From a virus, in UHGV virus genome UHGV-0225709: a stretch of DNA of 10,210 bases; one strand, written 5' to 3'. Below, piece by piece: positions 1-10,210 of the stretch. Position 1 is the stretch's first letter, and each line of letters opens with the position of its first letter. The translations under genes were made by a program, and so were the position numbers. The notes beneath the pieces were generated by a model. That model was not told the origin of the DNA and did no database searches. It saw only the letters and a list, made by a program, of their open reading frames with translations.

Positions 1-369
1 TTTTGTCATGACATCAACCCAATTCTTAATACCAGGAATCTCGGTTACTGGACAACTCATATCCCAATAACCAGCCTGTTCCCACGTTAAAACGGGCAAC
101 CGGGCGATGTTGTCACTAATGTAAGGGTACTGATTCAGACGCAGATCATCGGCTTTATCGTGACCGTCCTTTCCATAAAGAATCCATTCAGGAGATTTGG
201 AAAGCAATTTTGACAGTAGATACAAATTCTCACCGTCAGGTTTTGAAGAGCCATTTTCCCATTTTGTTACGGATACACGAGATATGCCGATTGCTTTCGC
301 AACCTGCTGTTGGGTTAATCCAACGTCTTTTCGACGATTCCGAATACGTTCGCTGATAGTGTTTTTCAT
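1..369 (-). CDS. cI: Phage repressor, lambda-cI-like with LexA/S24-type C-terminal domain (partial; the C-terminus lies beyond the window start)
   Basis: Reverse-strand reading frame is open from ATG (complement of 367-369) to the window edge, 123 codons with no stop. The translation begins MKNTISERIRNRRKDVGLTQQQVAKAIGISRVSVTKWENG, a typical XRE/Cro-C1 helix-turn-helix. It continues ...RLPVLTWEQAGYWDMS..., which resembles the lambda cI hinge around its Ala-Gly RecA-stimulated autocleavage site. Absent from the ORF track because it is truncated. Divergent from the downstream cro-like gene. Confidence 0.8.
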   Translation of the reverse strand, partial: MKNTISERIRNRRKDVGLTQQQVAKAIGISRVSVTKWENGSSKPDGENLYLLSKLLSKSPEWILYGKDGHDKADDLRLNQYPYISDNIARLPVLTWEQAGYWDMSCPVTEIPGIKNWVDVMTK

Positions 370-460
370 GTAACCAATGTTACTACCAAGTGATGTTGCT
401 ATGGTTGACATTGTTATGTAACTATTGTTACCCTTTTGCTCGAAATAACAGGAGAGTTTT
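370..460. promoter_or_regulatory. Divergent immunity promoter/operator region between repressor and cro-like gene
   Basis: A 91 bp non-coding gap lies between divergent regulator genes. Two copies of the 14 bp dyad GTAAC-N4-GTTAC occur at 370-383 (gtaaccaatgttac) and 418-431 (gtaactattgttac). A TTGACA hexamer sits at 405-410. The SD ggagag at 444-449 precedes ATG 461. I could not pair the -35 with a convincing -10. Confidence 0.55.
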
Positions 461-676
461 ATGTTCAAAGATGATGTTCTGCGCTATTTCAAAAAAAAGC
501 GACTAGTAGCTGAGGCTCTTGGAATTTCACATGTGGCTGTTGTGCGGTGGAAAGCAGTTATTCCCAAACTTCGCGCAATGGAACTGGATGAAATTACTAA
601 CGGTGAATTGAAATACAACCCAGAACTTTACAAGAAGCAGGATAGCACCTCAAACGAAGGAAAGAATGATTCATGA
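461..676 (+). CDS. cro: Cro-like small DNA-binding regulator (HTH)
   Basis: 71-aa ORF with SD ggagag 12 nt upstream. The motif KKRLVAEALGISHVAVVRWKA is a classic Cro/C1-type HTH. Position immediately divergent from the repressor gene. The stop overlaps the next start (ATGA at 673-676). Confidence 0.75.
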   Translation: MFKDDVLRYFKKKRLVAEALGISHVAVVRWKAVIPKLRAMELDEITNGELKYNPELYKKQDSTSNEGKNDS

Positions 677-1098
677 AAATCAAGCATGAACACATCCGCA
701 TGGCGATGAATGTCTGGGCGCATCCGGACGGCGAAAAAGTACCGGCTGCGAAAATTACCAAAGCGTATTTCGAGCTGGGAATGACGTTCCCGGAACTGTA
801 TGACGACAGCCATCCGGAAGCCCTGGCCCGTAATACCCAGAAAATTTTCCGCTGGGTAGAGAAAGACACCCCTGATGCAGTTGAAAAAATTCAGGCGTTG
901 TTACCAGCGATCGAAAAGGCAATGCCACCTTTGCTGGTGGCCAGAATGCGCAGCCACAGTTCAGCTTATTTTCGGGAGCTGGTGGAGACGCGGGAGCGAC
1001 TGGTGAGAGACGCTGATGATTTTGTCGCAGTGGCAATCGCCGGTTTCAATCAGATGAACCGTGGTGGCCCGGCAGGAAATGCTGTGGCAGTACATTGA
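673..1098 (+). CDS. CII-like phage regulatory protein (YdaT/CP76-like by recollection); function inferred from position
   Basis: 141-aa ORF translationally coupled to the cro-like gene by an ATGA overlap, with SD aaggaaag at 657-664. The product (MKIKHEHIRMAMNVW...) resembles, from memory, the protein encoded after cro-like ydaS in Rac-type prophages. Family assignment not verified. Confidence 0.55.
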   Translation: MKIKHEHIRMAMNVWAHPDGEKVPAAKITKAYFELGMTFPELYDDSHPEALARNTQKIFRWVEKDTPDAVEKIQALLPAIEKAMPPLLVARMRSHSSAYFRELVETRERLVRDADDFVAVAIAGFNQMNRGGPAGNAVAVH

Positions 1099-1169
1099 CT
1101 GACAATAGCCATGTCGAATCGCTTCCGGCAACTCGTGAGTAAAAAGATTCGGTATCAGAAGAGGTGAGT

Positions 1170-2240
1170 ATGGCTAACGCCTGGCTCAGATTATGGCATG
1201 ACATGCCAAATGACCCTAAGTGGCGAACAATTGCCAGGGTGTCAGGGCAGCCAATTGCAACAGTGATGGCAGTATATATCCACCTCCTGGTGAGCGCGTC
1301 ACGAAATGTCACGCGAGGTCACATTGATGTCACGACAGAAGATTTGGCAAGTGCGCTCGACGTGACAGAAGAGGTAATTGATTCAATTTTGCAGACGATG
1401 CAGGGGCGGGTACTTGATGGTGATTTAATCACTGGATGGGAAAAACGCCAGGTGCTGAAAGAGGACAACGGCAATATTTCGCAAACCGCAAAATCTCCGG
1501 CAGAGCGCAAGAGGGCGCAGCGAGAGAGGGAAAGAAAGCGGGAACAAAATGGCGATTGTCACGGCGAGTCACGAAATGTCACGCACATGTCACGACGAGT
1601 CACGACAGATAAAGATACAGATAAAGATACAGATCAAGAAGATCAAAACACTATGGTCCATGGCGTAAAAAACGCCACGAACCAGGCAGGGGATGTTCAG
1701 ACCGTCAATCTCGGTCAGCCAGCAGGCACGACACCGGAAGCCGATTCAGCGTATGCGCTGAAAGCCGATTCGGGCGCTGTGCAGCAGGTGATGACCGCAA
1801 GGCAGGAGCAATCACACCAACTTCAGCAGCCTGAAGCCGATTCCGCCATTCAGCGGGAAGCCGATCGGGTAGTCCCGGAAAACACCGGTCAGTCTGTGGG
1901 ACGAGTGGATTATCCGGATGTGTTCGAACAGGTCTGGCGGGAGTACCCGTTGCGTGCCGGAGCAAACCCGAAGAAATCCGCTTTCAGTGCCTGGAAGGCC
2001 AGATTACGCGAGGGGGTGCCACCAGAGGCCATGCTGGATGGCGTGAGGCGTTACGCAAGATACCTGGCGGCTACCGGGAAAGCGGGAACGGAATTTGTTC
2101 AGCGAGCGACGACGTTTTTTGGACCGGACCGGAATTTTGAGAACCCCTGGTTTCTCCCGGTAAGCGGCACGAACAACCAGCGTTGTGTGAATCATATTAC
2201 TGAACCGGATAACGAAATTCCGCCGGGCTTCAGGGGGTAA
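1170..2240 (+). CDS. Phage replication initiation protein (lambda-O-like organisation, iterons embedded in the gene)
   Basis: 356-aa ORF taking ATG 1170 (the track begins at GTG 1164), with SD gaggtg at 1161-1166. N-terminal region WLRLWHDMPNDPKWRTIARVSGQPIATVMAVY. C-terminal region DYPDVFEQVWREYPLRAGANPKKSAFSAWKARL...GVRRYARYLAATGKAGTEFVQRATTFFGPDRNFENPWFLP matches a motif I recall from phage replication initiator/primosomal-type proteins. Contains iteron arrays and an AT-rich tandem repeat (see repeat features). Sits in the position of P2 gene A. Confidence 0.7.
   Translation: MANAWLRLWHDMPNDPKWRTIARVSGQPIATVMAVYIHLLVSASRNVTRGHIDVTTEDLASALDVTEEVIDSILQTMQGRVLDGDLITGWEKRQVLKEDNGNISQTAKSPAERKRAQRERERKREQNGDCHGESRNVTHMSRRVTTDKDTDKDTDQEDQNTMVHGVKNATNQAGDVQTVNLGQPAGTTPEADSAYALKADSGAVQQVMTARQEQSHQLQQPEADSAIQREADRVVPENTGQSVGRVDYPDVFEQVWREYPLRAGANPKKSAFSAWKARLREGVPPEAMLDGVRRYARYLAATGKAGTEFVQRATTFFGPDRNFENPWFLPVSGTNNQRCVNHITEPDNEIPPGFRG
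1298..1334. repeat. Iteron cluster 1: four GTCAC(G) repeats at 10-11 bp phasing (putative origin element)
   Basis: GTCAC begins at 1298, 1308, 1318 and 1329. An inverted copy CGTGAC lies at 1361-1366. The 17-mer gtcacgaaatgtcacgc at 1298-1314 recurs exactly at 1568-1584. Confidence 0.7.
1558..1650. repeat. Iteron cluster 2 (five GTCACG repeats at 10-11 bp phasing) followed by an AT-rich tandem repeat; putative phage origin of replication inside the rep gene
   Basis: GTCACG at 1558, 1568, 1578, 1589 and 1599. Immediately followed by gataaagataca twice in tandem (1608-1631) and then gatcaagaagatcaaaac. This lies in the region encoding an acidic linker (DKDTDKDTDQEDQ). The arrangement parallels ori-lambda within gene O (iterons followed by an AT-rich unwinding region). 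Confidence 0.7.
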
Positions 2241-2280
2241 GTGTTAATTTCTGGTCATGAGGTAATTTTCAGGAGGGCTT

Positions 2281-2703
2281 GTGGCAAAAGTTTTTACACA
2301 AGAAGAGCGGGAAAAAATTAAAGGGCTGATCGTGGAATTCGTACGCCTTAACGGACGAGGCACGATTCGGCAGTTATCGGATGAAATTGGTGTCAGTCAT
2401 GCGTCTGTCGGTCGTTTATGCATGGAGCTGGCCGCCAGTGGTGATGTTTACAATTCCGGTTACGGAGTATTCCCGTCTGAGCAGGCGCGCAAGGACTGGC
2501 AAAACGCCCGCAAAAAACTCTCAAGGGCAAAGCTGAAGAAACCATCTGTGGTTGATCCGGACCTTATCTGGCTATTACCAGACGGCGAAATACGCCGCTA
2601 CGACAGGCGCCTAAACATAATCTGTCGCGAGTGCCGGAAGAGTGAAGCTATGCAGCGTGTACTGGCTTTCTATCAGGGTAATTTTCAGGAGACGGTACTG
2701 TGA
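2281..2703 (+). CDS. Hypothetical protein with a probable winged-HTH N-terminus and a single C-terminal CxxC
   Basis: 140-aa ORF starting at GTG 2281 with a strong SD aggagg at 2271-2276. GTIRQLSDEIGVSHASVGRLCMELAASG looks like an HTH; followed by a basic stretch (ARKKLSRAKLKK) and CRECRK. No confident family assignment. Confidence 0.6.
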   Translation: MAKVFTQEEREKIKGLIVEFVRLNGRGTIRQLSDEIGVSHASVGRLCMELAASGDVYNSGYGVFPSEQARKDWQNARKKLSRAKLKKPSVVDPDLIWLLPDGEIRRYDRRLNIICRECRKSEAMQRVLAFYQGNFQETVL

Positions 2704-2760
2704 GTGAAATTAGCTATCAGGCTTCAATTACCGCTGGCATTCGCATCAAAGGAGAGGAGC

Positions 2761-3117
2761 ATGGAAATAAAACCAGAGGATGAGTTAAGCAATATCGTTT
2801 TATTTCCGGTAAAAGAGGATGACCCTCGTAATCAGGTTAATTTTCTTTATGAGCCATCGGAAAGACCATATTGTCATCACGCCTCTGTCCGGGTTGACGA
2901 AAAAGAGCGTCAGGTCCGCTGTAAAATCTGCGGTGCAGTTGTGGAGCCGTTTGACTGGATACTCTCTGTGGCGAAAAGAGAAACCAGACTGGCAGATGAT
3001 GTAAGGCTATTGCGCCAGGAGGAACAGGAAAGGCGGAAAAATATAGAAAAGTTAATTCAGATTGAGCGTAACGCGAAAGCGCGGATACGCAGGGCGACAA
3101 AATCCAGAACTGAATAA
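2761..3117 (+). CDS. Hypothetical protein with a putative zinc ribbon (C-x17-CxxC) and a charged, probably coiled-coil C-terminus
   Basis: ATG 2761 preceded by SD aggag at 2750-2754. Product MEIKPEDELSN...CHHASVRVDEKERQVRCKICGAV...RLLRQEEQERRKNIEKLIQIERNAKARIRR. The track ORF starts at GTG 2704 in the same frame; that alternative start is not excluded and is 12 nt downstream of a second copy of the ggtaattttcaggag element. Confidence 0.6.
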   Translation: MEIKPEDELSNIVLFPVKEDDPRNQVNFLYEPSERPYCHHASVRVDEKERQVRCKICGAVVEPFDWILSVAKRETRLADDVRLLRQEEQERRKNIEKLIQIERNAKARIRRATKSRTE

Positions 3118-3167
3118 ATAAATTTAGAGCTGTAAATAAAATCTAATCCTTAACTGGAGGTATATTT

Positions 3168-3380
3168 ATGTTAAATACACAGAAAGCCATTAATGCGGAA
3201 AAATATAACGAGTGGGCAAGAAAATTCTCTGAGCAGATTTTTAAAATTACTGGCGATGAGAATGCGGCAAAAAATGAATTAGAACCGTGGACGCCTGAAG
3301 GAGCCGACTCAAATTATTGCTGGAGGGAGGTTGATCCAGTTGATGCTGCAAATGAAGCTATGAGTTATTACAACGATTAA
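3168..3380 (+). CDS. Small acidic hypothetical protein (70 aa); first gene of the AT-rich cargo segment
   Basis: ATG 3168 with SD ctggagg 6-12 nt upstream. The product has 14 Asp+Glu against 7 Lys+Arg by my count. Lies in markedly AT-rich DNA. Confidence 0.6.
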   Translation: MLNTQKAINAEKYNEWARKFSEQIFKITGDENAAKNELEPWTPEGADSNYCWREVDPVDAANEAMSYYND

Positions 3381-3390
3381 TGTCAGGAGG

Positions 3391-3406
3391 CCGCCCGAAA
3401 GGGCGG
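3391..3406 (+). other. Perfect 6 bp GC stem with GAAA tetraloop (ccgccc-gaaa-gggcgg) directly after an AGGAGG and before two ATGs
   Basis: Seen directly: aggagg 3385-3390, stem 3391-3396 / 3401-3406, ATGs at 3409 and 3413. No U-tract follows, so it is not a canonical intrinsic terminator. May be an RNA processing or translational control element. Confidence 0.5.
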
Positions 3407-3492
3407 TAATGAATGGTCACATTATTTAGAAAAAATATCCGCGAAAGAGTAGAACAACAGAATTTCTGTTTCTCATTCTGTTTATCGTGTTG

Positions 3493-3630
3493 ATGATACC
3501 GATATCCCCGCTAATCCTAGTCTGGATAATCGGAAAAATAATTGAGCCAGTTATTGAATTGTATAACGACGTGGTATGGGCGTCATTCAACACACTGCAC
3601 AATAAAATTAATCCGTATAAGGAAAACTGA
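3493..3630 (+). CDS. Candidate small hydrophobic (single-pass membrane?) peptide, 45 aa
   Basis: ATG 3493 overlaps the stop of a 26-codon upstream ORF (3413-3493) in a TGATG arrangement. Its own stop TGA 3628-3630 sits 1 nt before ATG 3632 of the next gene. Product MIPISPLILVWIIGKIIEPVIELYNDVVWASFNTLHNKINPYKEN has a hydrophobic N-terminal half. Too short for the ORF track. No classical SD of its own, so expression would depend on coupling. Confidence 0.4.
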   Translation: MIPISPLILVWIIGKIIEPVIELYNDVVWASFNTLHNKINPYKEN

Positions 3631-3631
3631 T

Positions 3632-3895
3632 ATGGCAACTTTGACAAAAAAAGAACGGGCATGGTTGAACGAATTACAGGAAGTTCTTGATCGCTGTCCA
3701 TCACCGAAAAAAATTGGCTTTTACACCATTGGCGATAAAAGCATTTACCTGTATGACCTACGCCGCATGGATGAAATCATGGAGGCTCTTGATAATCGTT
3801 CGTCAATGGATTGGTGTGTTGCTGTCCATGATATGAATGCAGGGTTTGATGAAAAGATTTTGTTCCCCTCATCAGTTGAAAGCACAGCAGGATAA
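3632..3895 (+). CDS. Hypothetical small protein (87 aa), last gene before the terminator
   Basis: ATG 3632 with SD aagga at 3619-3623. The track ORF begins at TTG 3542 in the same frame, but the internal ATG with SD is the better start. Product MATLTKKERAWLNELQEVLDRCPSPKKIGFYTIGDKSIYLYDLRRMDEIMEALDNRSS... Followed 37 nt later by an intrinsic terminator. Confidence 0.6.
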   Translation: MATLTKKERAWLNELQEVLDRCPSPKKIGFYTIGDKSIYLYDLRRMDEIMEALDNRSSMDWCVAVHDMNAGFDEKILFPSSVESTAG

Positions 3896-3931
3896 GGACC
3901 CAGCAAATATACACAACCTATAAAACACTAA

Positions 3932-3956
3932 AGCGCCTCAGGGGCGCTTTTTGTTT
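3932..3956 (+). terminator. Rho-independent terminator closing the rightward early/cargo operon
   Basis: Stem agcgcc (3932-3937), loop tcagg, stem ggcgct (3943-3948), followed by tttttgttt. Confidence 0.75.
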
Positions 3957-3982
3957 GCACAAAAGTGCACAAATTTGCACAA
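3956..3982. repeat. Three direct TGCACAA repeats at exactly 10 bp phasing, followed by a T7 tract
   Basis: TGCACAA at 3956-3962, 3966-3972 and 3976-3982. Helical phasing puts the sites on one DNA face. Candidate protein-binding array (small terminase/cosB-like or a regulator). Confidence 0.5.
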
Positions 3983-4052
3983 TTTTTTTGAACGACTTTT
4001 TACCCTTCCGGCCCGCATGGCGGCTGGATCCGTCAAGGATCCGTGCGTGCAC

Positions 4053-4076
4053 AAAAAAACGCGCTTTTTCTGCGCG
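4053..4076 (-). terminator. Candidate Rho-independent terminator for leftward transcription (short stem)
   Basis: On the minus strand: CGCGC-agaaaaa-GCGCG followed by TTTTTTT (plus-strand aaaaaaa at 4053-4059). The stem is only 5 bp, so moderate confidence. Convergent with the plus-strand terminator at 3932-3956. Confidence 0.45.
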
Positions 4077-4353
4077 CAGGTGACGGGGGAACAGCCCGCG
4101 TTTCAGGGGGTAAATAGCATTCCCTGAACGATGTCGCAGAGATACAACAGAATGGCTGTATTTCTCACGCTGAGCGTGAAAAAGACGTGAGGGCTTTTGA
4201 TTTGATGGGGTGAAAGGTAAGGCCGTCAAAATCGCACTGAGACGGCGAGAACATGCAGTCAACGCGGTGGGATTGCGTAAGAGTCTGACTGTCGATGATG
4301 GCAATCAGCAGGAAAGCGTCGTGAAATTATCTGATTGATACAGGAGCTGGAGA

Positions 4354-4382
4354 GCCGGGGCATAAATTTTTTATGCCCCGGC
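4354..4382. other. Inverted repeat / hairpin immediately downstream of the portal gene
   Basis: gccggggcat (4354-4363) pairs with atgccccggc (4373-4382), extendable through flanking A/T. Lies 25 nt past the Q-like stop. No clear U-tract on either strand. Confidence 0.45.
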
Positions 4383-4406
4383 GAAGCAGCAGACAAGCGA
4401 AGCGCG

Positions 4407-5453
4407 TCAGGATGTGGGCTGGGTGTCTAACAGTGCGTAAGGGTTAAAGCGGATCACCTTTTCGCCAAGCCAGTCATTGATGTGCTTCATGGCCTCCATG
4501 ACGGGCATCAGTTCGTTAATTGCGTAAACCCGCGCGGCCTTCTCCACATCACCAAACGCACTTTTTTCGCCCGGCATCGCCCCCATCAGTTGCGGCGGAA
4601 CGCGGTGCGCAGCCAGCACATCATCACGGGATGCCGCCTTAACATTCATGAACTCATCCTTTGCGGTGATCTGCTGGAACGGCAAAATTTGCACCCCCTC
4701 TTTGCCCCCGTTGGGCGCATGAATGAGCACGTTTTTAAACGCACCGCCACCACGCGCACCCTGTAACGTTTCTTTCAGGGAGTCCATGCTTTCGCGGTTT
4801 ACCTGCGCTGCACCGATGTAGATGATGCACCCGGCATGGGATCCGTTGTCGTAATACAGTTTTCTGAACATGTCCGCCGAATGAGACAGGCTGGCCGAGA
4901 GTAATGCGCCAAGATATTCCGGCATGCCGTAGATTTCCTGGTTAATGTCAGGATTCATCAGGTGGCACACTTTGCCTGGGCGAAACTGAAACGCATCCTT
5001 ACCATCCTGCACATACCACCATGATTCAAGATCGCTTCCGCGTCGCATGTATTTCGCTAGGGCGTGCCGTAATTTAAGCGGTTCGCCGAGCATATTGCTT
5101 CGAAGCTCAAGGAATGCGTTACCGAACACAAACCAGTCCAGCGCCAGCGCCGAGAAATCCTGCCGGGAAAGCAGCGGGTGCGGGATGTAGCAACCGAGTA
5201 ATACATTGCGCTTAAAGTAAAGCGCAGACTGATGCCAGGACGTTTGCCGGGCAGCTCTTGCCAGACCGTACCAGTCCACCGGTGTTTCATACCACCGCCC
5301 GTTATCAGCACAGTACATATTGTCCAGCAAATCATGCCCGGTCAGGCGATAAGGACCATCAAATGTGAATGCACTGAGCGATGATTCTTTCCTGAGCGCA
5401 TCAGCGAGATCAATGCGTGAACTCATGCGCACTTTTTTATTTTTTCTGCTCAT
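4407..5453 (-). CDS. Q: Portal protein, P2 gpQ-like
   Basis: 348-aa ORF on the minus strand with SD GGAG 5 nt upstream of its ATG (complement of 5451-5453). Size and position (adjacent to and co-oriented with large terminase, next to the cos region) match P2 Q. The start overlaps the terminase stop (ATGA). Confidence 0.8.
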   Translation of the reverse strand: MSRKNKKVRMSSRIDLADALRKESSLSAFTFDGPYRLTGHDLLDNMYCADNGRWYETPVDWYGLARAARQTSWHQSALYFKRNVLLGCYIPHPLLSRQDFSALALDWFVFGNAFLELRSNMLGEPLKLRHALAKYMRRGSDLESWWYVQDGKDAFQFRPGKVCHLMNPDINQEIYGMPEYLGALLSASLSHSADMFRKLYYDNGSHAGCIIYIGAAQVNRESMDSLKETLQGARGGGAFKNVLIHAPNGGKEGVQILPFQQITAKDEFMNVKAASRDDVLAAHRVPPQLMGAMPGEKSAFGDVEKAARVYAINELMPVMEAMKHINDWLGEKVIRFNPYALLDTQPTS

Positions 5454-7204
5454 CAGAACTCCATAACCGTGAAACGCTCGTTTTCTCCTTCGCCGCCAAT
5501 TGGTTCGTTAATGACAGCAAGCATGGTTGCCCACGCAAGGTCGCCGTGGCTGATCCCCCTCGCGCGGTCCGTTTCGTAAGTGATAAAGCCGCCCGGTGTT
5601 TTCACCTTACGCACGGCGTTAAAGGCTGCGACCAGCTCGCGTTCGGCGCGATCGTATTCCCACCGCCCGGCACGCATTATTTGCAGCATTTTCAGTACCA
5701 GCGACCGTTTTGATGACAGCGTGAAGGTGTACGGAATAGCAGCAGGGAAAAACCGTTTCACTATCTGATAAACAGCCTCCCCGTTCCCGCCTGTCACATC
5801 AATGCCGATGTGTTCCACGTTGTAGCGACACGTGAACTCTTCAATGACTCTGGCCTGTTCTTCAAACTCCAGCCCCTGAACGCGTCGCGTCTCCACCGTT
5901 CGAAAACGGCCTCCAGGAACAGCCGGAGGAACCACCACGGACACAGCGCCGCTGTCGCCGTTTCCACTGCTGCCGTTTGCGTCATACCCAATCCATACCG
6001 GACGATTCCCCATCGGGCGGGGAGCAAAAGGTTTCCAGTCTTTCCAGTCGTCGTATCCGTCAACACCGCAGCCAATCAGGATATTCAGGTTAAATGCCGA
6101 TTCCCCTTCGCGGACAAACTCACACATATAGAGATTGAGGAACTCATCTTCGGTGTTTTCATCACGAATTTCGTCGATATCGGTGTGTTTCCAGCCGTGA
6201 TTAACCACATCTTCCAGCGTGACAATTTGCCGCCACGTCCGGTCAGGGCAGATAAGCCCGTTATGCAGCGTTTTCCAGTCCACAGAAAAACGCTGGCGTT
6301 TATGCGAGGCCTTTTTCTCGTTCCAGCGGTCGCCGTTCCAGTAGGCGTATGCCTCGTGCGTTTCGGTGGATGGCGTGGAAAAGTAGGTGCGCCGCAGTCC
6401 GCTGAGGGTTGCCATAGCGCCAGCCACCTTGCGCAGTTCAGCAAAGCGACTGACCCAGAAAAATTCATCAAAATAAAAATTGCCCGTATAGGACTGTGCC
6501 GACGCAGCAGAAGTGCCGAGAAAATGCAGCTCTGCGCCGTTGGAGAGGATGATTTTATCGCCCCCTTTCAGCTCCACATCAACTTCAGCCGCGGCCTTCT
6601 GAATAATGCTTTTAAACTGGAACGCCTGACGACGCGACGCAGACAAAAAAATCTGGTTACGCTGGTAAGGTTGCGCCACATCGTCACGCAGCGCCATCAG
6701 CAGAGCTTCCTGTGCAAAATACCAGGTCGCCCCAATCTGTCGGGATTTCAGGATCATCCTGTTACGTATCCCGGCTTCCCTGCAAAGGGTCAGGGTGTCA
6801 AACCAGCCCCGCTGATGCCACTCCAGCCTGCTGATGATTTTTTCCCGCAGTGCGGCAATCTGTTCCGGCGTGAAATGATTTTTGAGTTTTTTCGCCCGGC
6901 CTTTCTTTCCTGCGGCCGTCACATCCGGCTGGCCATCATGCAGCTTTTTAAGCTGCCGGGTCAGCAGGTCTATTTCCTTAAAGTCACCGCCTGTTTTATT
7001 CTGTTTTTCAGTAAGCTGGATGAGGCGCGCATCGATGGACTGCGTGACACGCTGCACGGGTGGCGTTTCATCCCACTGGTCGCGTTTTTTCCACGCATAA
7101 ATCGTGTTCGGGTTTATTCCCATCAGACGTGATATTTCTGCGGGCGGATAACCCTGCCAGTAAAGTTGCCGCGCACGCTGGCGCACAAAAGCGTCCTGAA
7201 TCAT
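5453..7204 (-). CDS. P: Terminase large (ATPase) subunit, P2 gpP-like
   Basis: 583-aa ORF. Contains a P-loop-like KSRQIGAT motif and acidic nuclease-domain-like segments. Length and position match P2 P (about 590 aa). SD agggggag upstream of the ATG (complement of 7202-7204). Confidence 0.85.
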   Translation of the reverse strand: MIQDAFVRQRARQLYWQGYPPAEISRLMGINPNTIYAWKKRDQWDETPPVQRVTQSIDARLIQLTEKQNKTGGDFKEIDLLTRQLKKLHDGQPDVTAAGKKGRAKKLKNHFTPEQIAALREKIISRLEWHQRGWFDTLTLCREAGIRNRMILKSRQIGATWYFAQEALLMALRDDVAQPYQRNQIFLSASRRQAFQFKSIIQKAAAEVDVELKGGDKIILSNGAELHFLGTSAASAQSYTGNFYFDEFFWVSRFAELRKVAGAMATLSGLRRTYFSTPSTETHEAYAYWNGDRWNEKKASHKRQRFSVDWKTLHNGLICPDRTWRQIVTLEDVVNHGWKHTDIDEIRDENTEDEFLNLYMCEFVREGESAFNLNILIGCGVDGYDDWKDWKPFAPRPMGNRPVWIGYDANGSSGNGDSGAVSVVVPPAVPGGRFRTVETRRVQGLEFEEQARVIEEFTCRYNVEHIGIDVTGGNGEAVYQIVKRFFPAAIPYTFTLSSKRSLVLKMLQIMRAGRWEYDRAERELVAAFNAVRKVKTPGGFITYETDRARGISHGDLAWATMLAVINEPIGGEGENERFTVMEF

Positions 7205-7358
7205 TGCTCCCCCTGAGTAATTACAGGAAGATTACCCGCGCGCGAAACCGTTCTCCTTAACCCCCTGTTCTGGCCGTTTTCTTACAACAAAAGCCCTTTG
7301 TATCAGCCTGTTACGCTTTGCCATCATGACTGAAGAACCAGTCAGAGGGGCAAAAACT
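7205..7358. promoter_or_regulatory. Divergent intergenic region between the P-like and O-like genes; expected location of divergent late promoters
   Basis: 154 bp non-coding gap between divergently transcribed packaging/head operons, as in P2 (P_P and P_O). I could not find convincing sigma70 -35/-10 pairs nor an exact TGT-N12-ACA dyad (only TGT-N15-ACA at 7266-7286). An 8 bp palindrome gtaattac lies at 7217-7224. Confidence 0.5.
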
Positions 7359-8195
7359 ATGGCTAATGAAAAAAAGACATCCCGCAAAAAGTTTCGCGTG
7401 GCTGTCTCCGGATCAACTGTTGATGGCCGCGAAATCAGCCCGGTACATCTGCGTGAAGCCGCCGAGAACTTCAACCCGGATGTTTACGCTGCCCGCGTGA
7501 ACGTTGAGCACTATCTCTCGCCATGCCCGTCAAGCGAATTTTCCGCAATGGGCGATGTCACCGCGCTGAGTACGGAAGATATTACGGAAGGCCCGCTGGC
7601 CGGACGTACTGCGCTGTATGCAGAAATCGAACCGACCGAGCGCATGAAGCAGCTTGTCGCTGACGGCAAGAAAATCTATTCCAGTATCGAACTGCACCCG
7701 CAGTTCTCCGTTAACGGGCGCGCCTATCTGGTCGGGCTGGCGATGACCGACACCCCGGCAAGCCTGGGCACTGAGCGCCTGAAATTCACGGCACAGCAGC
7801 GTCAGGCGGTGATGACGTTCAACAGTATTCAGGGTGAAGCACCGCTTATCTCCGAAGCCATCGAGTCTGAAATCATCGAAATGGCAGAACAACGCCAGGA
7901 AGAAGGCACCCAGTGGTTTAACCGCGTAATGGGGATTATTGGTCGTGGCCGCAAAGCGGATGACGCCAGTTTCTCCCGTATTCAGGAAGCGGTGGAAGGC
8001 GTCGCAACGTCACAGGCCGACATTATCGACCGTTTTAATGTGCTGGAAACCCGCCATCAGCAGGACAGCAAGAAAATCACGTCACTGACCACAGAGCTGA
8101 CAGCTCTGACGGAAAAACTGCGCACGCAGGACGGCGATCCGCAGAACCGCTTCACCGCAACGGGCGCAGCCTCCGACCAGCTGGCTGACTTCTGA
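7359..8195 (+). CDS. O: Capsid scaffolding protein, P2 gpO-like
   Basis: ATG 7359 with SD agagggg at 7343-7349 (the track begins at ATG 7326, 11 codons upstream). The segments GSTVDGREISPVHLREAAENFNPDVY and ...GRAYLVGLAMTDTPASLGTERLKF... resemble P2 O as I recall it. Correct size (about 280 aa) and position before the major capsid gene. Confidence 0.8.
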   Translation: MANEKKTSRKKFRVAVSGSTVDGREISPVHLREAAENFNPDVYAARVNVEHYLSPCPSSEFSAMGDVTALSTEDITEGPLAGRTALYAEIEPTERMKQLVADGKKIYSSIELHPQFSVNGRAYLVGLAMTDTPASLGTERLKFTAQQRQAVMTFNSIQGEAPLISEAIESEIIEMAEQRQEEGTQWFNRVMGIIGRGRKADDASFSRIQEAVEGVATSQADIIDRFNVLETRHQQDSKKITSLTTELTALTEKLRTQDGDPQNRFTATGAASDQLADF

Positions 8196-8218
8196 TAAGA
8201 CAAAGGAGCAAATTTTTT

Positions 8219-9271
8219 ATGAATCTGGTGATGTCAGATATTACCCGCAACAAGCTGGGTTGCTATATGGCGCAGCAGGCGTCGCTTAACAATATCCCGG
8301 TATCTGCACTGGTATCGCGATTTACCGTGGAACCCGCGGTGCAGCAGCGTTTTGAAAACGCCTCAAAGGAAAGTACCGAATTTACGAAAAGAATTAACGT
8401 GATCGGCGTGACCGACCAGAAAGGCGAAAAAATCCTCCTGGACACCACCGGGCCAATTGCGCGCACGAATAGCAGTTATGACGGCATCAAACGCCGTAAC
8501 CCGAATAACGTGATCGATATGAACTCTCGTCAGTACCAGTGCGAACAGGTGAACTACGATACCTTTATTTCGTACCCACAGCTTGATACCTGGGCGGCCC
8601 ACAGCGATTTTCAGTCCCGTATCAGTACACAGATCGCCCGGCAGGTAGCGCTTGATCGCATCATGATTGGCTTTAACGGCACATCCCACGCCTACGAGTC
8701 TGATTTTCACACCAACAAGCTGCTTCAGGACGTTAACGTGGGCTGGCTGGAGCACATCAGAACCGATGCCAGCGAGCGCGTAATGAATGACGTGACGCTG
8801 ACCTCCCGCAACATGGACAACACTGTGGCGCACGCGGGTAAGTATGCGAATGCCGATGCTCTGGTACAGGATGCGCGCTCATCCCTGCTGGATGAATGGC
8901 ACAAGGAAGCTGACGACCTTGTGGTGATTATGGGGCGCAACCTGTTTAACTCGCTGCGTCTGCCCGTACTGAACAGCATCAGCGGCCAGAATCCCAATGC
9001 GGAATTACTTGCCGGGCAGCTCATCCTGTCATCGCGCACCATTGGCGGGCTGGGCGTGTTCCTTGCGCCGTTCTTCCCGGATGCAACGATGCTGATCACC
9101 TCGTTCAACAACCTGTCGATTTACTGGCAGAAAGGTTCAATGCGTCGCCTGATGAAAGACGAGCCGGAATACAACCGCATCGCCACCTACCAGTCCATCA
9201 ATGACGCTTATGTCGTTGAAGACTATGGCAAGTGCGCGATGGTCACTGGCTTGAAGTTCGCCGACAGCTAA
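8219..9271 (+). CDS. N: Major capsid protein, P2 gpN-like
   Basis: 350-aa ORF with SD aaaggagc at 8203-8210. The segments ...FTVEPAVQQ..., ...IMIGFNGTSHA..., ...VGWLEHIR..., ...DLVVIMGRNL..., ...MLITSFNNLSIYWQ... and ...YVVEDYGKCAMV... match the P2 N family pattern as I recall it. Confidence 0.85.
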   Translation: MNLVMSDITRNKLGCYMAQQASLNNIPVSALVSRFTVEPAVQQRFENASKESTEFTKRINVIGVTDQKGEKILLDTTGPIARTNSSYDGIKRRNPNNVIDMNSRQYQCEQVNYDTFISYPQLDTWAAHSDFQSRISTQIARQVALDRIMIGFNGTSHAYESDFHTNKLLQDVNVGWLEHIRTDASERVMNDVTLTSRNMDNTVAHAGKYANADALVQDARSSLLDEWHKEADDLVVIMGRNLFNSLRLPVLNSISGQNPNAELLAGQLILSSRTIGGLGVFLAPFFPDATMLITSFNNLSIYWQKGSMRRLMKDEPEYNRIATYQSINDAYVVEDYGKCAMVTGLKFADS

Positions 9272-9316
9272 TCAACTCACGGCGGGCATCATGCCCGCCT
9301 GTAACGGAGAGAAAAA

Positions 9317-10117
9317 ATGATTACTCCTGCACAACAACACTGGCAGAACGTGATGGCACAGCGCGCAGGCCGGGCGAATGAAGGTGTGGACCACGCCGCG
9401 CGTACCGCGCATGAAGAGGTGCTGTATCGTCTGCGTCTGGCACAGGCCAGGCTAAAGGGCGTACAGGCCAGAAGCGCGAAAGCCGCCATCAAAAAAGAGT
9501 TGTTGCCGGATTTTTCCGGCTGGATTGAGGGAACGCTGGAAGCTGACGGCGGGCAGCAGGATGAAGTGATTGCCACGCTGATGGTGTGGGCGATTGACTG
9601 TGGCGATCTTCCGCTTGCGCTGCGTATCGGCGCGTATGTGGTCCATCACAACCTCATCATGCCGGATAACTTTGGCCGTACTGCTGCCACGGTACTGACC
9701 GAAGAAATCTGTAATCCGGTACTGACGCAGGCCGGGACGGATGCCGACGCGGATTTGTCCGCCTTTATCGAACCACTGGACACCCTCCGGGAGATTGTCA
9801 CCGACCAGGACATGCCGGACGAAGTGCGCGCCAAATTATGCAAAGCGTGCGCCTTTGCCCGCCGTGGCCTGACCGATGCGGACAGCATGGCCTCATCACT
9901 GAAGCTGCTGCGCGAAGCAATGCACCTGAACCCGAACGCAGGTGTGAAACGCGAGATTGCAACCCTTTCCCGCGCCCTGAAAAAAGCCGATTCCGCAGCC
10001 GCACCAGAAGATGCCAGCACACCGCAGGCGCAGGACGAAAGCAGCAAAAGTAAAAAGACAACGCGGAAGCCTGCAACACGAAAAACCACCGCGACGCAGA
10101 AGGCGAAGCGCGGTTAA
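9317..10117 (+). CDS. M: Terminase small (endonuclease) subunit, P2 gpM-like
   Basis: 266-aa ORF with SD ggagag at 9305-9310. N-terminus MITPAQQHWQNVMAQRA..., ...KKELLPDFSGWIEG... and a basic K/R-rich C-terminal tail are characteristic of P2 M-type small terminases. Gene order O-N-M. Confidence 0.8.
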   Translation: MITPAQQHWQNVMAQRAGRANEGVDHAARTAHEEVLYRLRLAQARLKGVQARSAKAAIKKELLPDFSGWIEGTLEADGGQQDEVIATLMVWAIDCGDLPLALRIGAYVVHHNLIMPDNFGRTAATVLTEEICNPVLTQAGTDADADLSAFIEPLDTLREIVTDQDMPDEVRAKLCKACAFARRGLTDADSMASSLKLLREAMHLNPNAGVKREIATLSRALKKADSAAAPEDASTPQAQDESSKSKKTTRKPATRKTTATQKAKRG

Positions 10118-10132
10118 CGACTGACCCCGTCA

Positions 10133-10204
10133 GCGGGCGGCGTGCGCGGTGTTCCGGTTTGACTCCGTGACCGTTTACACCGCGCACCCACCGCCCGATT
10201 TTTT
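10133..10204 (+). other. Long imperfect inverted repeat followed by a T6 tract between the M-like gene and the next SD (terminator- or attenuator-like)
   Basis: Left arm gcgggcgg-cgtgcgcggtg (10133-10151) pairs with caccgcgcac (10178-10187) and ccgcccg (10191-10197) across a 3 nt bulge. Loop is about 26 nt. tttttt at 10199-10204, then caggag SD at the window edge. Confidence 0.4.
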
Positions 10205-10210
10205 CAGGAG

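Follow-up and report, generated by a model that had tools for sequence, protein, structure and literature searches.

ORF70, a small acidic protein from a family encoded in early accessory regions of temperate Enterobacterales phages

The ORF70 gene, its family and its predicted structure

The window analyzed in this study is the whole stretch of 10,210 nucleotides from the UHGV virus genome UHGV-0225709, and the subject is one open reading frame (ORF) within it, here named ORF70. ORF70 is located on the plus strand at positions 3168-3380, starts with ATG, and encodes 70 amino acids (aa) followed by a stop codon, giving a protein of 8.1 kDa. A Shine-Dalgarno sequence, GGAGG, is found at 3156-3160, 7 nt 5' of the ATG. 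The protein contains 14 acidic residues (5 D and 9 E), 7 basic residues (5 K and 2 R), and no histidine. Its isoelectric point (pI) of 4.39 and its net charge of -7.5 at pH 7 were computed from this composition, and no long hydrophobic stretch was read from the sequence. The gene has a GC content of 39% and opens a low-GC tract, from about 3000 to 3900, with 38-41% GC between flanks of 50-60% GC. The original prediction, a note made from the letters of this DNA, had counted 14 acidic against 7 basic residues with a net charge of about -7, and had described an AT-rich setting with a Shine-Dalgarno sequence of the gene's own; the recount and the local signals agree with all of this.

ORF70 is a genuine gene, beyond a chance ORF, because of its frequency in genomes, its many close relatives, its substitution pattern, and the presence of remote relatives with the same residue pattern. 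Of 5426 complete E. coli genomes, 661 contain the DNA at 3100-3450, in some cases in as many as five copies, and ORF70 is found in 617 of the 5426 at a coverage of at least 80%. Its close relatives make up about 120 protein clusters from Escherichia and Shigella. The pairwise ratios of nonsynonymous to synonymous substitution rates (dN/dS) between six distinct E. coli and Shigella nucleotide alleles range from 0.14 to 0.34, a sign of purifying selection on ORF70. On the minus strand across ORF70, no ORF of at least 40 aa was found.

The protein is a member of PHROG 4659, annotated as "unknown function", and the match is full-length, aligning residues 1-70 with all 70 profile positions (E-value 3.2e-48, 162.6 bits). 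The second PHROG match, to phrog_25725, was only weak. Remote relatives with 35-50% identity were collected by an exhaustive HMMER search and two profile searches. These include proteins from Klebsiella (75 aa), Salmonella (73 and 91 aa), Serratia (76 aa), and a Mu-like phage (62 aa), together with further assemblies, and they may lie outside PHROG 4659. Multi-stretch matches of 1038-3770 aa in the exhaustive search were rejected as spurious, and the three that were retrieved were repetitive, partly acidic low-complexity sequences. The hydrophobic and aromatic pattern of ORF70 is retained in the relatives at 35-50% identity. Six residues (W16, F20, T28, E37, W41, and P57) are invariant in all relatives, and Y13, W52, D56, A60, and A61 are kept by nearly all of them. 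The family consensus is KY..W...FS.RI...T.S..AVKAELE.WPF......YNWR..DPVDAA.EALSYYGD. The family, consisting of PHROG 4659 and the remote relatives, is small and restricted to temperate Enterobacterales phages. PHROG 4659 already lists these proteins as hypothetical, and they are filed here with the small early accessory proteins of temperate phages.

Searches of the domain and defense collections returned no assignment. ORF70 alone had no match in Pfam or NCBIfam, and 18 family members searched against Pfam with E-values up to 10 gave scattered chance matches only. The PADLOC defense models matched neither ORF70 nor its two neighbors at E-values up to 1. The PDB was searched by sequence, using either ORF70 alone or the family profile, and only chance matches came up, namely a glutathione S-transferase and an alphavirus E2 protein.

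The structure of ORF70 was predicted by AlphaFold2. The first model, built from a shallow E. coli-only alignment of near-identical sequences, reached a predicted local distance difference test (pLDDT) score of 58.6 and was discarded. With an alignment including the remote homologues, the pLDDT was 86.3 and the predicted template modeling score was 0.75. In this model, helices span residues 2-28, 31-38, and 57-66, and an aromatic-rich loop spans residues 39-56. ORF70 is predicted to be a soluble 8-kDa protein with three helices packed around an aromatic core of Y13, W16, F20, W41, and W52. The model also predicts a conserved polar and acidic edge, made up of helix 3 together with the end of helix 2 (E37, E39, D56, D59, and E63). 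When the model was used in Foldseek searches, nothing significant was found in BFVD (best E-value 0.59) or in the PDB (best E-value 1.8).

Genomic contexts of the ORF70 family

The gene order around ORF70 was the same in all 10 distinct contigs encoding the identical protein: repressor and Cro, a YdaT/CII-like gene, replication genes, DUF977 (Ren-like), a 118-aa zinc-ribbon gene, ORF70, (DUF4014), an 87-aa gene, DUF551, and hokD, continuing to RusA/Q. This order of genes is that of the nin region in Rac-like lambdoid prophages. Members of the family also occur in other loci. The P0041 allele of E. coli and Shigella lies directly after DUF977 and persists in remnants flanked by insertion sequences (IS). 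In the Shiga toxin (Stx) 2a phage ArgO145, the homologue belongs to the Ea22/exo-xis part of the early-left operon. A homologue is also present in the P1-like phage Ro157c2YLVW, near Ea22-like genes, and in P1-sized non-mobilizable plasmids. The Klebsiella homologue lies in a nin region, between lambda-P-type replication genes and NinB...Q. The 91-aa form of Salmonella is found among Bro-N/antirepressor genes before NinG and Q, and the 73-aa form in a pL operon with KilR, GamL, RecT, YqaJ, MT-A70, and further genes up to xis and int. The Serratia homologue lies similarly in a pL operon near int, and the homologue of the Mu-like phage lies between DUF3164 and GemA/Mor, in the Mu semi-essential early region. 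Across the mapped contexts, no partner gene common to the genera was found, either upstream or downstream.

The window itself is a hybrid of two phage types. Positions 1-3898 match Rac-like lambdoid prophages (L015, L017, and L019) with 99.8-99.9% identity, and positions 3628-10210 match a P88-like prophage (L031; Xuanwuvirus, P2-type) with 99.9% identity. The two parental matches overlap by 271 bp (3628-3898), within the 87-aa gene that both share. A search of the 5426 complete E. coli genomes found none that spans the junction (best coverage 63%), and no exact match was found in IMG/VR or in the GTDB representative genomes. The junction was also absent from the distinct arrangements listed for 24 contigs with an identical portal protein; these have the normal gpA, ParM, StbB ... 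portal layout, mostly with the 87-aa gene beside the portal gene. Because the junction was unseen in the other genomes and contigs examined, the window is one of two things: a recombinant that is rare, or a chimera created during assembly across the 271-bp repeat. P2-like phages have a hotspot between gpA and gpQ that adjoins cos (Rousset et al., bioRxiv 10.1101/2021.01.21.427644), and the junction of the window falls in this hotspot. In both cases, ORF70 is no cargo of a P2-type island and is a native, standard gene of the lambdoid nin block. The "cargo island" of the original prediction was a misreading of a hybrid junction at which P2-like late genes follow a lambdoid nin block of the Rac type. 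Its placing of ORF70 at the head of that island holds for the low-GC tract of the window and fails for the idea of cargo, since ORF70 is a fixed syntenic member of the nin block.

Within the window, ORF70 is bordered by conserved flanks. The 5' leader (CTGTAAATAAAAT...CTGGAGGTATATTT) covers 3130-3167 on the plus strand, is about 38 nt long, and holds the GGAGG described above. It is near-identical in E. coli loci despite different upstream genes, for example IS1 in locus L024. The 3' end of the cassette, at 3385-3415 on the same strand, contains AGGAGG (3385-3390), a hairpin (3390-3407), and the next start codons at 3409 and 3413. The hairpin lies directly 3' of the ORF70 stop, has a GC stem of 7 bp with a GAAA loop, and is 100% conserved in eight loci with three different downstream genes. 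The fold of the 54-nt stretch that includes it (3372-3425) has an energy of -19.7 kcal/mol, with z = -4.0 against shuffles. AGGAGG abuts the hairpin on its 5' side, and the ATG of the following gene is 5-7 nt from the 3' side. A 9-codon mini-ORF (MSGGRPKGR*) at 3380-3409 spans the hairpin, with a TAATG overlap at each of the two stops. This region looks like a split Shine-Dalgarno sequence or a termination-reinitiation device that would govern translation of the next gene. Around 3100-3450, no sigma-70-like promoter on the plus strand and no intrinsic terminator were scored; the hairpin was not scored as a terminator because it has no T-run. Neither kind of element was found between ORF70 and the early genes upstream of it. 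ORF70 therefore does not show the layout of a moron, with its own promoter upstream and a terminator downstream. No RNA family from Rfam was found in the window.

The upstream neighbor, at 2761-3117 on the plus strand, encodes a 118-aa protein of phrog_1621 with a zinc ribbon (CxH...CxxC) and a coiled coil. The mechanical ORF starts at a GTG at 2704 (137 aa), and homologues are annotated from the ATG at 2761. This gene often accompanies ORF70 in E. coli, also into the early-left operons of Stx phages. It was considered as an obligate partner and rejected, as it is not directly upstream in P0041-type loci nor in other genera. In the Klebsiella prophage L006/L007 (5792-6004), a cysteine-rich ORF of 70 aa (MGITEGFCADLYCDCDGCQ...) ends in a 4-nt overlap (ATGA) with the ORF70 homologue. 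This ORF is unrelated to the E. coli zinc-ribbon neighbor, so that the family may have been paired twice, independently, with a small metal-binding protein.

Downstream of ORF70, the DUF4014 gene (3413-3630, plus strand) is a frameshifted pseudogene in the window and is annotated as frameshifted in the near-identical E41 locus. Intact 72-aa versions are found in loci L015 and L023, and the copy in the window needs a frame change. A 92-aa ORF on the minus strand (3426-3704) lies over DUF4014 and matches phrog_20982 with an E-value of 1.4e-28; phrog_20982 is probably a family of shadow ORFs antisense to DUF4014. The 87-aa gene (phrog_1714) follows at 3632-3895 on the plus strand and is common to Rac-like lambdoid prophages and P88-like phages. 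Between this gene and the portal gene, about 500 bp (3896-4407) contain no convincing genes. By its position, this stretch should hold the P2-type cos region. It includes a perfect hairpin at 3930-3950 (AAAGCGCCTCAGGGGCGCTTT) resembling a bidirectional terminator.

Acidity of ORF70 and alternative explanations

The charge of ORF70 was compared with 64 distinct proteins of up to 120 aa from seven related phage loci. With a charge density of -0.107 per residue, ORF70 ranks sixth in acidity per residue among the 64, and 20% of these small neighboring proteins have a pI below 5. The acidity of ORF70 is notable, not exceptional. Within the family, the net charge of 23 members ranges from +1.5 to -9.5 (+0.025 to -0.135 per residue), and 18 of the 23 have a pI of at most 5.1. 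Three members are neutral or basic (P0128 and P0162 at +1.5, P0164 at -0.5), and P0124 and P0137 have a net charge of -2 to -3. The Salmonella-type forms of 91-93 aa reach only -2 to -3.

The original prediction had drawn an analogy to DNA mimics, in which an acidic surface imitates the phosphate backbone and fills the DNA-binding site of a nucleic-acid-targeting enzyme such as a restriction enzyme or CRISPR effector. The known DNA-mimic inhibitors T7 Ocr, ArdA, AcrIIA4, AcrIF2, Ugi, and lambda Gam are, like ORF70, small, acidic, and phage-encoded, and they share the early expression that is presumed for ORF70. The net charge of -7.5 and the pI of 4.39, the low pI of most family members, the five conserved or nearly conserved acidic positions (E37, E39, D56, D59, and E63), and the location in early accessory regions are all in line with this idea. 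However, ORF70 differs from these mimics by a lower and non-conserved charge density, by the lack of any fold likeness, and by the lack of a sequence match to any PDB chain. Its density is modest, which we take to be no higher than the bottom of the range of known mimics, and three small ORFs in related loci reach -0.20 to -0.26. Most of the invariance falls on aromatic or hydrophobic residues of the core (W16, F20, W41, and P57) and not on carboxylate arrays, and the predicted structure has no similarity to a solved DNA mimic and no carboxylates arrayed like the phosphates of B-DNA. D56 and D59 fit the N-cap box of a helix (D-P-V-D) and would have a structural role there; a small patch with a function could be made up of E37, E39, and E63. 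In addition, no gene for an aca-like helix-turn-helix regulator adjoins ORF70; its neighbors are the zinc-ribbon/coiled-coil protein, DUF4014, and the 87-aa protein. No fold or sequence match to an anti-CRISPR protein was found in the PDB searches, and no anti-restriction protein, anti-CRISPR protein, or DNA mimic was among the fold matches listed. With a charge that is not conserved and invariant residues that are mainly in the core, a backbone-mimicking charge array is therefore unlikely as a conserved mechanism. We consider DNA mimicry by ORF70 very improbable, and the analogy is disfavored by the family charge, the modest density, and the invariant core.

Three tiny ORFs in related loci were observed during the charge comparison. 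In phage ArgO145, gp15 and gp14 (5682-5864 and 5857-6033 of locus L002) encode 60 aa with a net charge of -15 and 58 aa with a net charge of -12, directly downstream of the ORF70 homologue. A 58-aa ORF with a net charge of -11 is located at 6486-6662 in a related early region (locus L023). These three ORFs are better DNA-mimic candidates than ORF70.

The small early ORFs in the exo-xis and nin regions of lambda (Orf60a, Orf61, Orf63, Orf73, Ea8.5, and NinD/E/F/H) resemble ORF70 in their compartments, in their size of about 60-90 aa, in their dispensable accessory status (PMC10695390), and in co-transcription with an early operon, which is presumed for ORF70. ORF70 could therefore be a phage-internal modulator like these ORFs, tuning phage replication, recombination, or the lysis-lysogeny decision. 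It is found in the same nin and exo-xis/Ea22 compartments, and it adjoins replication genes (DUF977/Ren-like and the replisome organizer) in E. coli and RecT/YqaJ with the MT-A70 methylase in Salmonella. However, the phages that carry it replicate and recombine by modules that are not related to each other (lambda-P type, DnaC/IstB type, Mu transposase, and those of the P1-like phage), and therefore no phage partner is common to them. No sequence relationship or PHROG link to the lambda ORFs was detected, and no lambda early protein was recognized among the PDB fold matches listed. Such an internal function is a serious alternative that we regard as rather unlikely. A benefit to the lysogen is improbable on the same kind of weighing. 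A prophage-expressed gene that guards the host against other phages or alters host physiology would be consistent with the intact ORF70 in degraded remnants, for example IS1, ORF70, DUF4014, ompW in Shigella sonnei, and with the low-GC cassette-like structure with its conserved leader and 3' hairpin. Yet a remnant that is clonal may keep the gene by hitch-hiking, upstream of ORF70 no promoter was detected, and no PADLOC defense model was matched. The gene is also carried by the plaque-forming phages ArgO145 and Ro157c2YLVW inside early lytic operons.

The structure searches bear on another alternative, in which ORF70 would be a stand-alone look-alike of sigma region 2 that competes for the beta-prime clamp helices of RNA polymerase or titrates an anti-sigma factor, thereby redirecting host transcription. 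The sigma2 domains of extracytoplasmic function (ECF) sigma factors were the recurring best resemblance in three independent structure searches, with TM scores normalized to the query of 0.52-0.60, which are non-significant. The matches included SigL, SigH, SigE, SigR, SigK, SigW, RpoE, and phage ECF sigma factors. In the Foldseek search of the PDB, 7 of the 10 matches listed, including the top four, were ECF sigma factors, and several phage ECF sigma factors were among the BFVD matches. Nevertheless, all likeness scores are non-significant, and three-helix bundles resemble many folds by chance. When the family profile was aligned by hhalign with residues 1-99 of E. coli RpoE, whose sequence was verified against PDB 1or7, the probability was 0.4%; the resemblance is therefore at most one of gross three-helix topology. 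No Sigma70_r2 signal was found in 18 family members in Pfam at E-values up to 10, and unlike an ECF sigma factor, ORF70 is a single 70-aa domain without region 4. This alternative is highly doubtful.

Possible role of ORF70 in phage infection

The reading that we tentatively prefer, at somewhat short of an even chance, is that ORF70 is a host-takeover or counter-defense factor acting by protein-protein contact and not by mimicry of the DNA backbone. Rac-like lambdoid prophages carry the gene natively in their nin region, with the replication genes on one side and the Q antiterminator on the other. Lacking a promoter of its own, ORF70 would be expressed as part of the delayed-early operon. The protein would bind a host protein stoichiometrically at an early stage of lytic growth, and this binding would block or redirect the bound protein. 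The expression timing, the binding mode, and the target class in this scheme are all inferred. No partner gene is conserved across genera, which suggests that ORF70 acts alone or on a host factor. Direct DNA binding is unlikely, since the protein is acidic and has no long hydrophobic stretch.

The genomic contexts are consistent with such a role. The lambda nin region is unnecessary for plaque formation (PMC10695390), and this dispensability fits an accessory role of ORF70. The mapped contexts are early, dispensable accessory regions, and by association they mildly support the accessory or counter-defense class. The picture that results is of a stand-alone, early-transcribed accessory gene that would move as a small cassette. 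An anti-defense role, as the original prediction had suggested by analogy to other small acidic phage proteins, is possible on the same analogy.

Several points weigh against a host-takeover or counter-defense role. No homology and no significant fold match of ORF70 to any characterized inhibitor was found in Pfam, NCBIfam, the PDB, or Foldseek. Most of the conserved residues could be purely structural. The literature, queried by accession, PHROG identifier, and DUF4014, returned no paper and no expression or interaction data. Finally, the argument from context is one of guilt by association, because genes for recombination, regulation, and exclusion are found in early accessory regions too.

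A broader version of the host-takeover or counter-defense reading can be formulated, although we hold it to be unlikely. The ORF70 family may be an unrecognized class of counter-defense or host-takeover inhibitors, with a fold absent from solved structures, that travels between temperate Enterobacterales phages of the lambdoid, Mu-like, and P1-like kinds as a cassette of about 280 bp and whose target would be a host immune or nucleic-acid-handling protein. In a more exotic variant of this version, the protein would be a stand-alone sigma2-like decoy acting on RNA polymerase or on an anti-sigma factor.

About 1 in 8 complete E. coli genomes carries ORF70, including many Shiga-toxin-producing strains of O26, O103, O111, O121, and O145, together with Shigella sonnei, and the gene is also found in inducible Stx2a phages. 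ORF70 is an ORFan of phages that is predicted to fold well. It is a fair, not outstanding, candidate for anti-defense screening, because it is common in prophages of pathogenic E. coli and because of this predicted fold. If ORF70 is an inhibitor of host defense or a host-takeover factor, it would provide a small, easily expressed tool, and it would help to account for how Stx and Rac-type phages establish infection.
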